Shown piece after piece: positions 1,134 through 24,726 of a DNA stretch of 32,000 bases. The stretch is taken from positions 413,966 to 445,965 of the forward strand of contig JAUYHT010000006.1 in the NCBI GenBank assembly GCA_030688545.1. The letters run 5' to 3'. This stretch comes from Candidatus Iainarchaeum sp. GTDB taxonomy: Archaea > Iainarchaeota > Iainarchaeia > Iainarchaeales > VGJJ01. Under the pieces are notes generated by a model. The model saw only the letters and a list, made by a program, of their open reading frames with translations, ran no database searches and was not told the origin of the DNA. Each line of letters begins with the position of its first letter. Position 1 is the stretch's first letter. The translations under genes were made by a program, and so were the position numbers.

Positions 1134-1310
1134 TATTTAGATCAACCCGAATCCAAAAATAGATACTTTTTTTGATCAAAATTTTTTTCTAGAAAAGAGC
1201 ACGTTTTTTGATCAAACTTTTTCCTAAAAAAAGTCCGTTTTTTGATCAAACTTTTTTCTAAAAAAAGTCGTTTTTTGATCAACCTTTTTCCTAAAAAGTT
1301 TGAAAAAAAG
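1134..1310. repeat. Tandem array (about 5 units of ~33 nt) of an AT-rich, palindrome-containing repeat; consensus CGTTTTTTGATCAAACTTTTTTCTAAAAAAAGT
   Basis: Units begin near 1134, 1166, 1202, 1236 and 1269. Each contains TTTGATCAAA (a GATC-centred palindrome) and CTTTTTTCTAAAAAAAG. An array of the same family in the same orientation lies at 18015-18180. Confidence 0.85.
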
Positions 1311-1331
1311 GAAAAGGCCGGGTAGCCGGCC
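1300..1331 (-). terminator. Hairpin plus oligo-T terminator downstream of the Arg-rich ORF
   Basis: Stem-loop GGCCGG-GTAG-CCGGCC at 1316-1331, 10 nt after the stop at 1341. On the minus strand it is followed by TTTTCCTTTTTTTCAA. Confidence 0.5.
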
Positions 1332-1340
1332 GTATTCCAT

Positions 1341-1526
1341 TTATGCTCGGCGCGCGCGGCGTCGCGCGGGGCGTCGGGCCGCGGGCTTTCGGGCCGTCGT
1401 ACGGCGTCGCGTAGTGCGGCGTCGGGCGGTGGTCGTTGTGGCCTTGCGGCGCACTCGGCGTCTTTTTGCCGGTCGGGCGGCGGATGCAGCAGCGCTGCGG
1501 CTTCTTGCTCTTCGTCTTACAGCCAT
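1341..1526 (-). CDS. Extremely arginine-rich small basic protein (61 aa; 25 Arg, 3 Lys, no Asp/Glu), protamine-like, hypothetical
   Basis: The ATG at 1526 is preceded by AAGGAGGT (1542-1535) with an 8-nt spacer. A hairpin plus T-run follows directly after the stop. A TATA-like element lies about 56 nt upstream. The local GC-rich island is explained by CGN Arg codons. Confidence 0.55.
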   Translation of the reverse strand: MAVRRRARSRSAAASAARPAKRRRVRRKATTTTARRRTTRRRTTARKPAARRPARRRARRA

Positions 1527-1581
1527 TTGGGTTTACCTCCTTATAGGCAACAGTTAATTATGTGCAAGCAACCAATCGCGG

Positions 1582-1589
1582 TATATAAA
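1582..1589. promoter_or_regulatory. TATA-box-like element (TATATAAA) in a divergent intergenic region
   Basis: It ends 22 nt upstream of the ribL ATG (1612), which fits a leaderless transcript. It is also correctly placed to give the minus-strand Arg-rich ORF an SD-containing leader. Confidence 0.4.
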
Positions 1590-1611
1590 TGTTTGCCAAT
1601 TTGTCATCGTA

Positions 1612-2097
1612 ATGCATACAAATACGCGTTTTACATCATCAAATGATCGTGCACCGCGCCAATGGGTGCGCGTCGTGGCCGCGGGAACATTTGATTGGGT
1701 GCACCCGGGACATGTGCATTTTCTTTCGGCGGCCAAGGCGCTGGGGGATCATCTCACCGTGATTGTAGCCCGGGATGCCACGGTGCGCCGCATCAAAGGG
1801 ACTTTCCCTATTACCCCCGAGGAGGGCCGAAAAGCCGTCATTTCGGCCGTGAGGGGGGTGGATGCAGCCGTTTTAGGGAACGAGGGGGATATTTTCCAAA
1901 AAATAGTTGAATTGAACCCGGATATCCTGGCGATGGGGTATGATCAACAGCCGGAGGATGAGGCATTACGGAAGGCTTTGGCGGAGCGGGGGCTTTCGTG
2001 CCAAGTCGTGCGCATCTCCTCCTGGCATCCGGAATCCAATAAAACATCGGTGCTCAAAAGGCGGTTGGGTATAGAAACAAATCGCCTCACCACGTGA
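1612..2097 (+). CDS. ribL: FAD synthase RibL-type nucleotidyltransferase (cytidylyltransferase-like family)
   Basis: GTFDWVHPGHVHFL carries the (H/T)xGH motif. VIVARDATVRRIKG..PITPEE..R..ISAVRGVDAAVLG matches the archaeal RibL pattern as I remember it. The size (~150-aa core) fits. Confidence 0.65.
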   Translation: MHTNTRFTSSNDRAPRQWVRVVAAGTFDWVHPGHVHFLSAAKALGDHLTVIVARDATVRRIKGTFPITPEEGRKAVISAVRGVDAAVLGNEGDIFQKIVELNPDILAMGYDQQPEDEALRKALAERGLSCQVVRISSWHPESNKTSVLKRRLGIETNRLTT

Positions 2098-24655: not shown

Positions 24656-24726
24656 TGTGGGATGGTTTAATGGTAAGACGCGACCTTGCCAAGGTAGTAG
24701 CCCGGGTTCGATTCCCGGTCGCTGCA
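24656..24726 (+). tRNA. tRNA-Gly(GCC)-like sequence; the 5' acceptor strand does not pair, so it is a possible 5'-truncated copy or att site rather than a functional gene
   Basis: Hand fold: U8-G9; D arm GTTT/AATGGTA/AGAC; anticodon arm CGACC-TTGCCAA-GGTAG (one G.A mismatch, anticodon GCC at 24688-24690); variable loop TAGC; T arm CCGGG-TTCGATT-CCCGG; 3' acceptor TCGCTGC plus discriminator A (24719-24726). The expected 5' strand GCAGCGA is absent: the sequence is TGTGGGA, only 3/7 pairs, and no match occurs within 215 nt upstream. Confidence 0.55.

Follow-up and report, generated by a model that had tools for sequence, protein, structure and literature searches.

Animal protamines, baculovirus P6.9 and adenovirus pVII-type core proteins measure approx. 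30-65 aa, consist of 40-60% Arg with Ser or Thr between the basic clusters, contain no acidic residues and evolve fast while their charge is kept. For the archaea, surveys of chromatin list, to our knowledge, folded proteins only, namely histone, Alba, Cren7, Sul7, MC1 and HU-like proteins. Chlamydia Hc1 and Hc2 condense DNA, and Hc1 compacts the nucleoid of E. coli. Size differences of the DNA-condensing Hc2 between strains result from the number of in-frame repeats (PMC2848022). Here, we describe a short gene of Candidatus Iainarchaeum sp. whose product appears to represent an archaeal family of protamine/H1-like polycations not described so far; the likeness lies in its probable function, and it belongs to none of the families tested.

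The polycations Hc2 (HctB, PF07382) and Hc1 likewise occur in prokaryotes, are poor in acidic residues and consist of short basic repeats, and their length varies by in-frame repeats as in the protein described here. However, Hc2 is a Lys/Ala-rich bacterial protein of 165-237 aa, whereas the archaeal polycations are Arg/Thr/Ala-rich and only 32-71 aa long. As judged from sequence comparison, this resemblance is compositional and not one of homology. With protamines, P6.9 and pVII the polycation shares size, Arg content, Ser/Thr spacing, the absence of acidic residues and a rapid sequence change at conserved charge. Protamines carry Arg runs of 4-7 residues and often Cys, whereas in the polycation an Arg doublet or triplet recurs every 4-5 residues. 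The polycation gave no Pfam match and nothing was found in viral contigs, the context here being cellular and archaeal. In the SPKK/(S/T)PXX motifs of histone H1 and sperm H2B tails a hydroxyl residue likewise stands two positions ahead of a basic doublet in repeated fashion, but in the polycation the proline is missing (position 2 is Ala, Thr or Ser) and a globular H1 domain is absent. eL41, bTHX and bS22 are similar in size, charge and the possession of a stand-alone, well-signalled gene; unlike the polycation, they have a conserved sequence and a constant length. The archaeal nucleoid proteins histone, Alba, Cren7, Sul7, MC1 and HTa are also small, basic and presumably abundant, and a lineage-restricted distribution is common to the polycation and to Cren7, Sul7 and MC1 (PMC7613761). 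These six are folded domains, whereas the polycation has no predicted fold and matches none of them.

The window, i.e. the whole stretch of 32,000 nucleotides that was analysed, corresponds to G000:C3:413966-445965 (source genome G000, contig C3) and belongs to a 1.13 Mb assembly of 9 contigs that is 96% complete. The polycation gene, its signals and its divergent neighbour are arranged as follows.

1341..1526, minus strand: polycation coding sequence (type 1) of 61 aa, from ORF translation; ATG at 1526-1524, stop codon TAA at 1343-1341

1535..1542, minus strand: Shine-Dalgarno (SD) sequence AAGGAGGT, separated from the ATG by 8 nt

1555..1563, minus strand: ACATAATTA block between TATA box and SD sequence, near the predicted transcription start

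1582..1596, minus strand: TATA box TTTATATA with BRE-like GCAAACA (BRE and TATA together: GCAAACATTTATATA), approx. 56-59 nt upstream of the ATG

1300..1331, minus strand: terminator 9 nt past the stop codon, consisting of the hairpin GGCCGG-CTAC-CCGGCC (1331-1316) and the T-run TTTTCCTTTTTTT (1315-1303)

1612..2097, plus strand: divergent neighbour of the cytidylyltransferase family (RibL/HldE-domain-like; Pfam PF01467, E 7e-16)

An earlier note on this DNA, made from the letters alone, had claimed a 61-aa ORF with 46% Arg+Lys and no acidic residues, lying in a GC-rich island caused by CGN Arg codons. Translation and a composition count bore this out. The protein consists of 25 R, 3 K, 16 A, 8 T, 3 S, 3 P, 2 V and 1 M (R+K 45.9%, D/E zero; approx. 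6.9 kDa) and has a net charge of +28. The GC content reaches 0.77 across positions 1351-1500 compared with approx. 0.5 in the flanks, and 0.72 for the polycation gene compared with 0.53 for the locus, because the Arg codons are mostly CGC and CGA. The SD sequence 8 nt before the ATG, the TATA element and the hairpin with T-run were each located where the note had placed them. Genes near the ORF are archaeal and code for Kae1, rps27ae, rps24e, a CPBP protease and the cytidylyltransferase-family enzyme. Judged by Kae1, the closest named relatives are Candidatus Iainarchaeum records (57-60% identity), which points to a DPANN archaeon of the Iainarchaeota type. Immediately past the terminator, between convergent genes, approx. 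4-5 tandem AT-rich units of 33-34 nt (TTTTTTGATCAAAC...CTAAAAAAAGT) occupy window positions 1134-1310. Elsewhere in the window, Rfam matched a tRNA at 24657-24726 on the plus strand (39.8 bits), which was not reported by ARAGORN.

Comparison with related genomes displayed an Arg/Thr/Ala/Ser-rich polycation ORF of 32-71 aa in 17/17 genomes of the genus, i.e. the source and 16 relatives. Cytidylyltransferase homologues are present in 16 of the 17, and next to 15 of them the polycation ORF fills the divergent slot. The homologue of G010 lies at a contig end, and the polycation gene of this genome was located via the promoter motif; in G012, in which no cytidylyltransferase homologue was found, it was located by profile search. 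The ORF always starts at ATG, and the N-terminus follows the pattern M-A-(A/R/V/T)-[RK][RK][RK], i.e. MA(A)RR. The family is composed of R (43%), A (19%), T (19%), S (9%) and K (6%), with an R+K fraction of 0.50 +/- 0.05 among orthologues and exchanges of the R<->K and T<->S<->A type. The length differences between 32 and 71 aa arise from in-frame tandem DNA repeats of 15 and 30 nt (5 and 10 codons).

The genus is deeply diverged: identity of the cytidylyltransferases is just 38-48%, and terminal branches of their tree mostly span 0.4-1.4 substitutions per site. Supported clades of this tree (G003+G001, G008+G015, G013+G010 and G004+(G009+G011)) coincide with polycation subtypes, which indicates that the polycation gene was inherited vertically. 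Frame-breaking indels in relatives, which according to the earlier note would have spoken against a gene, were not seen. Instead, the frame is kept in 17/17 genomes together with the ATG, the SD sequence, the N-terminus and the terminator, and the recurrence of the whole arrangement exceeds what chance would give and marks a genuine gene. A conserved start codon with ribosome binding site, a frame kept through indels, conservative exchanges and a terminator past the stop codon, as expected of a protein-coding sequence, are all observed here, and we are confident that the sense ORF is translated. Selection acts on charge, (S/T)-x-R-R spacing and the reading frame rather than on exact sequence or length.

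The expression signals are conserved as well. GGAGG precedes the ATG by 8-10 nt in all orthologues, and the 16S rRNA 3' end GGATCACCTCC was found in the genome. Only 24 of 768 long ORFs of the genome carry GGAGG at -20..-4, a census that took the first start codon of each ORF and is thus an approximation. In 16/16 orthologues folded, a hairpin built around a GGCC...GGCC core (-9 to -21 kcal/mol) begins 2-21 nt past the stop codon, and a T-run mostly follows. The GGCC..GGCC+T4 motif occurs at 28 sites genome-wide. Since both GGAGG and such hairpin/T-run sites are rare, the signal set of the polycation gene is unusual for this genome.

An alignment of the upstream regions showed that a 22-nt BRE/TATA block, GTAGCAAAC[C/A]TTTA[T/A]ATAGCAC, is near-invariant among the 17 orthologues. 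Sixteen of the 17 genus genomes contain the exact 15-mer GCAAACMTTTAWATA in a single copy; all inspected matches precede the polycation gene, and G005 has a one-base variant at this place. Across the order, the promoter motif yielded 52 matches in 48/196 genomes compared with 2 for a reversed control. In other families it stands upstream of genes for pilin-like proteins (class III signal peptides), secreted or surface-type proteins and membrane proteins, and we interpret it as the order's strong consensus promoter. As the TATA box lies approx. 55-60 nt before the ATG, a transcript leader of approx. 30-35 nt bearing the SD sequence is predicted from the putative transcription start. The TATA box is near-palindromic, and the ATG of the cytidylyltransferase gene follows approx. 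20-30 nt off its other side (23-30 nt at window 1582-1612). The BRE/TATA element is therefore probably bidirectional and serves both divergent genes, which suggests a leaderless cytidylyltransferase mRNA. Its conservation may in part be due to the fact that it also drives this neighbour.

A second polycation gene was found under the same promoter outside the window, and a further candidate in another family of the order.

G000:C3:267949-268140 (L082:1949-2140, outside the window), minus strand: second polycation gene of 63 aa, rich in R, K, T and V, with GTG start codon and the shared promoter

L191:1-93 (G022:C96), minus strand: Lys-rich polycation ORF MVTKKKAVKKKKPVKKKVVKKK... (MVTKKKAVKKKKPVKKKVVKKKVVKKKVVKK...) of G022, a member of another family of the order, with consensus promoter and AGGAGG

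The second gene shares with the first the TATA core (AAACATTTAAATA), the ACATAATTA block in an identical copy and GGAGGTAAACC, has a hairpin/T-run of its own and occurs in syntenic copies in G001, G002 and G003. The 13-nt promoter core is present only twice in 1.13 Mb, once at each polycation gene. Orthologues of the first gene have AT-rich equivalents of the ACATAATTA block at the same position. The Lys-rich ORF of G022 is incomplete and ends at the contig end.

Outside the genus, the polycation gene was missing from the syntenic slot in seven genomes of seven other families and from the slot next to Kae1 in Ca. Iainarchaeum records. Composition scans covering all of G017, 554 kb of G032 and 396 kb of G033 detected no comparable ORF. 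Weak matches in G032, G030 and G092 were discarded as false, as the inspected ones sit in alternative frames of ordinary genes. Back-translated pattern scans of genomes and viral contigs yielded nothing. A six-frame search of 196 genomes with a profile did not even recover the source genome's own copy, and six-frame searches with single proteins were likewise insensitive. As such searches miss known copies, a failure to find the gene outside the genus is weak evidence.

Protein databases gave a similar picture. The exact polycation, its antisense ORF and eight orthologue sequences (from six genomes, some with two alternative starts) are absent from a collection of 15 billion proteins, in which proteins of the neighbouring genes do occur. 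Searches of 5.8 billion proteins by phmmer and hmmsearch, using single sequences and a 14-sequence alignment, found nothing, and when hmmsearch was run on 1.84 billion representatives with a profile built from 14 orthologues, three translated microsatellites came back only, which are artefacts. For a protein of such composition, sequence searches proved too insensitive. A gene that is kept in 17/17 genomes with outstanding signals, while none of its looked-up products is in the 15-billion-protein collection, shows that gene calling can overlook short genes of low complexity.

The earlier note had found no likeness to any archaeal chromatin family known to it, and in agreement with this, searches of Pfam, NCBIfam and PDB sequences came back empty. 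The Pfam-A scan of the 61-aa protein (P0001) matched no family at E <= 0.1, including PF00260, PF05162, PF07382, PF00808 and PF01918. When three orthologues and the type-2 protein were scanned at E <= 10, a lone sub-threshold HC2 match appeared; the G003 orthologue scored 15.7 bits (E 0.016) against HC2 (PF07382), for which the cut-off is 40 bits. NCBIfam assigned no family, and the best hit of a profile search against PDB sequences, uS14 at E 0.7, was not significant. A language-model search provided weak leads only, among them an HC2-containing cluster with a score of 0.83. The gathering scores of protamine P1 (PF00260) and other Pfam polycation families were not reached. Assignment to Hc2/HctB (PF07382) fails in that P0001 has no match and that the repeats are Arg/Thr-based rather than Lys/Ala pentamers. 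The polycation does not qualify as eL41 (PF05162) either, which requires a motif of the RWKWKKKRMRR type and approx. 25-40 aa. For archaeal histone (PF00808) and Alba (PF01918) there was neither a Pfam match nor a predicted fold, and with regard to SPKK motifs, hydroxyl-x-basic-basic is enriched while Pro at position 2 is missing. In the literature, nothing relevant was found on protamine-like, H1-tail-like or arginine-rich proteins of archaea or DPANN.

Within the protein, basic doublets and triplets are spaced with a period of 4.6 residues (z 11 compared with shuffles). A 3.6-residue signal is absent, so that an amphipathic helix was rejected. The motif [ST]-x-[RK]-[RK] was observed 138 times compared with 60 +/- 6 expected, a 2.3-fold enrichment. 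Pro accounts for 0.3% of the family residues and is absent from motif position 2. AlphaFold2, supplied with the alignment, predicted a low-confidence single helix and no fold (pLDDT 63, pTM 0.23), which is consistent with a protein that is disordered or folds on binding.

Our leading candidate for the function, held with middling confidence, is that of an abundant, disordered nucleic-acid polycation with the chromosome or nucleoid as most likely partner. Consensus BRE/TATA, full SD sequence and terminator would provide strong expression of the 61-residue protein with its net charge of +28. The polycation would bind nucleic-acid phosphates electrostatically and independent of sequence, and together with the single histone it might neutralise and compact DNA in the manner of protamines, histone-H1 tails, Chlamydia Hc1/Hc2 and baculovirus P6.9. 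We infer that the polycation is abundant and disordered, and that it binds nucleic acid, mainly DNA and not RNA. Composition alone does not separate DNA binding from binding of RNA or the ribosome. DNA is favoured because the sequence turns over fast, its length is driven by repeats, and charge and spacing are under selection, which is characteristic of protamines, H1 tails and Hc2. The histone already encoded in the genome counts against a role in the nucleoid. The Thr and Ser residues might, as a speculation, allow control by phosphorylation. If the protein is indeed an abundant DNA-coating polycation, it bears on genome packing, charge balance and gene accessibility in ultra-small cells, and it would be an independent prokaryotic instance of the protamine solution.

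The other chromatin genes of the source genome were located on contig C4.

G000:C4:114443-114634: the single histone gene

G000:C4:216426-216958, minus strand: overlapping gene pair of 68 and 112 aa, antitoxin/toxin-like, which occupies the Alba slot

Alba was not found in the source genome at its 96% completeness. It was found in 86/121 genomes of the order (42/51 genera) but in 0/16 of those genomes of the polycation genus that reach >=85% completeness, and G009 (79% complete) yielded none either. The 71%-complete assembly of the sister genus G017 showed neither Alba nor the polycation gene. The ancestral Alba neighbourhood is conserved on C4, but Alba and two neighbours, as they exist in G033, are replaced by the gene pair. 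Lineage-specific basic nucleoid-associated proteins are described to arise in other archaea after loss of Alba or histone (PMC7613761). A replacement of Alba by the polycation in this genus may be taken as a lead, not as a result. A strict replacement was rejected, as G022 has Alba plus the Lys-rich polycation gene under the same promoter. The complementarity of Alba and polycation is a single evolutionary event and not a strict rule. More broadly, ultra-small DPANN archaea might use unannotated, fast-evolving, lineage-specific polycations of protamine type, transcribed from their strongest promoters, as major chromatin constituents, with the role of Alba taken over in this genus. With such proteins, a genome of a megabase would be fitted into a very small cell. 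We regard this generalisation as doubtful.

The small basic protein might instead be associated with the ribosome or RNA, as a lineage-specific counterpart of eL41, bTHX or bS22 seated in grooves of the rRNA or as a general RNA chaperone, which we consider possible though on the unlikely side. Its tiny size, hyper-basic composition and stand-alone gene with strong signals are typical of such proteins. Furthermore, rps27ae and rps24e lie 2 kb away, uS14 was the best, albeit insignificant, PDB sequence match (E 0.7), and Arg-rich peptides bind RNA well. However, ribosomal proteins fit fixed rRNA pockets, and a length that varies between 32 and 71 aa by repeat gain and loss, accompanied by very fast divergence inside one genus, is atypical for a fixed rRNA site. 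Neither the sister genus nor the scanned parts of two other families showed the polycation gene. It lies outside any ribosomal operon, and an eL41-like gene is already present elsewhere.

G000:C4:79718-79849, minus strand: eL41-like ORF (...RWKWKKKKMRREKRKKRYLRQRARQ) near the 16S rRNA gene, the only eL41-like match in the genome (C4:79730-79792)

Since this ORF occupies another locus of the same genome, the polycation gene was rejected as the eL41 gene. A similar ORF was observed in G032 (L062:4612-4761).

Very unlikely is a different partner altogether, the polycation being bound to polyphosphate granules in an AlgP-like manner, exported as a cell-penetrating peptide against a host cell, or used as a nitrogen store. 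Many DPANN archaea live attached to hosts and Arg-rich peptides cross membranes, but the 61-aa polycation has neither a signal peptide nor a hydrophobic segment, and secretion genes were not seen in the surrounding 4 kb. A precedent for polyphosphate is the H1-like AlgP of Pseudomonas, which spaces polyphosphate granules (PMC9239181). However, PPK1 and PPK2 were not found in the 96%-complete genome, which makes such a role unlikely.

That the polycation ORF is untranslated, being a GC-rich non-coding element or lying opposite the real gene (1300-1557, plus strand), is highly improbable despite an antisense frame, a2, that is open in 14/14 orthologues tested and is Arg-rich too. An antisense stop codon needs a sense TAN or CAN codon. 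As the protein contains no Tyr, His or Gln, such codons are missing from its codon set and the frame is forced open by arithmetic. Each antisense codon is built from the complements of three sense bases, namely positions 2 and 1 of one codon and position 3 of the codon before it. Because both frames thus share their wobble positions, codon-position and substitution counts do not split sense from antisense; the sole near-identical orthologue pair differs at 4 sites. Absence from the 15-billion-protein collection likewise applies to the looked-up proteins of both strands. However, the antisense frame has zero ATG in the 14 translated orthologues, a stop as first codon in three of them and no SD sequence, the hairpin/T-run would fall upstream of it, and the R<->K exchanges of the sense strand become R<->F/L when read antisense. 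The possibility raised by the earlier note that the opposite-strand ORF 1300..1557 is the only conserved frame thus did not hold, the antisense strand lacking ATG, SD sequence and terminator. A structured RNA was rejected as well, since Rfam gave no match within the ORF and the fold of the transcript does not surpass that of shuffled sequences (z -0.09).

Further small elements were observed in the source genome. Two Lys-rich mini-ORFs stand behind AAGGAG on the minus strand, one of 29 aa (MAKKKKATNKKKRQAAPTITGGKKAKKKK) at G000:C1:2594-2683 and one of 21 aa (MPKKKAKKVTPAKKGKRGKKR) at G000:C3:286208-286273. Moreover, an element of approx. 40 nt, CCAATTCCCC-TGGCAATCATTTAWATAGGTRATGGCCA, with a strong TATA box is present in two copies (G000:C3:321590-321640 and G000:C3:332855-332905) and may drive a small RNA.
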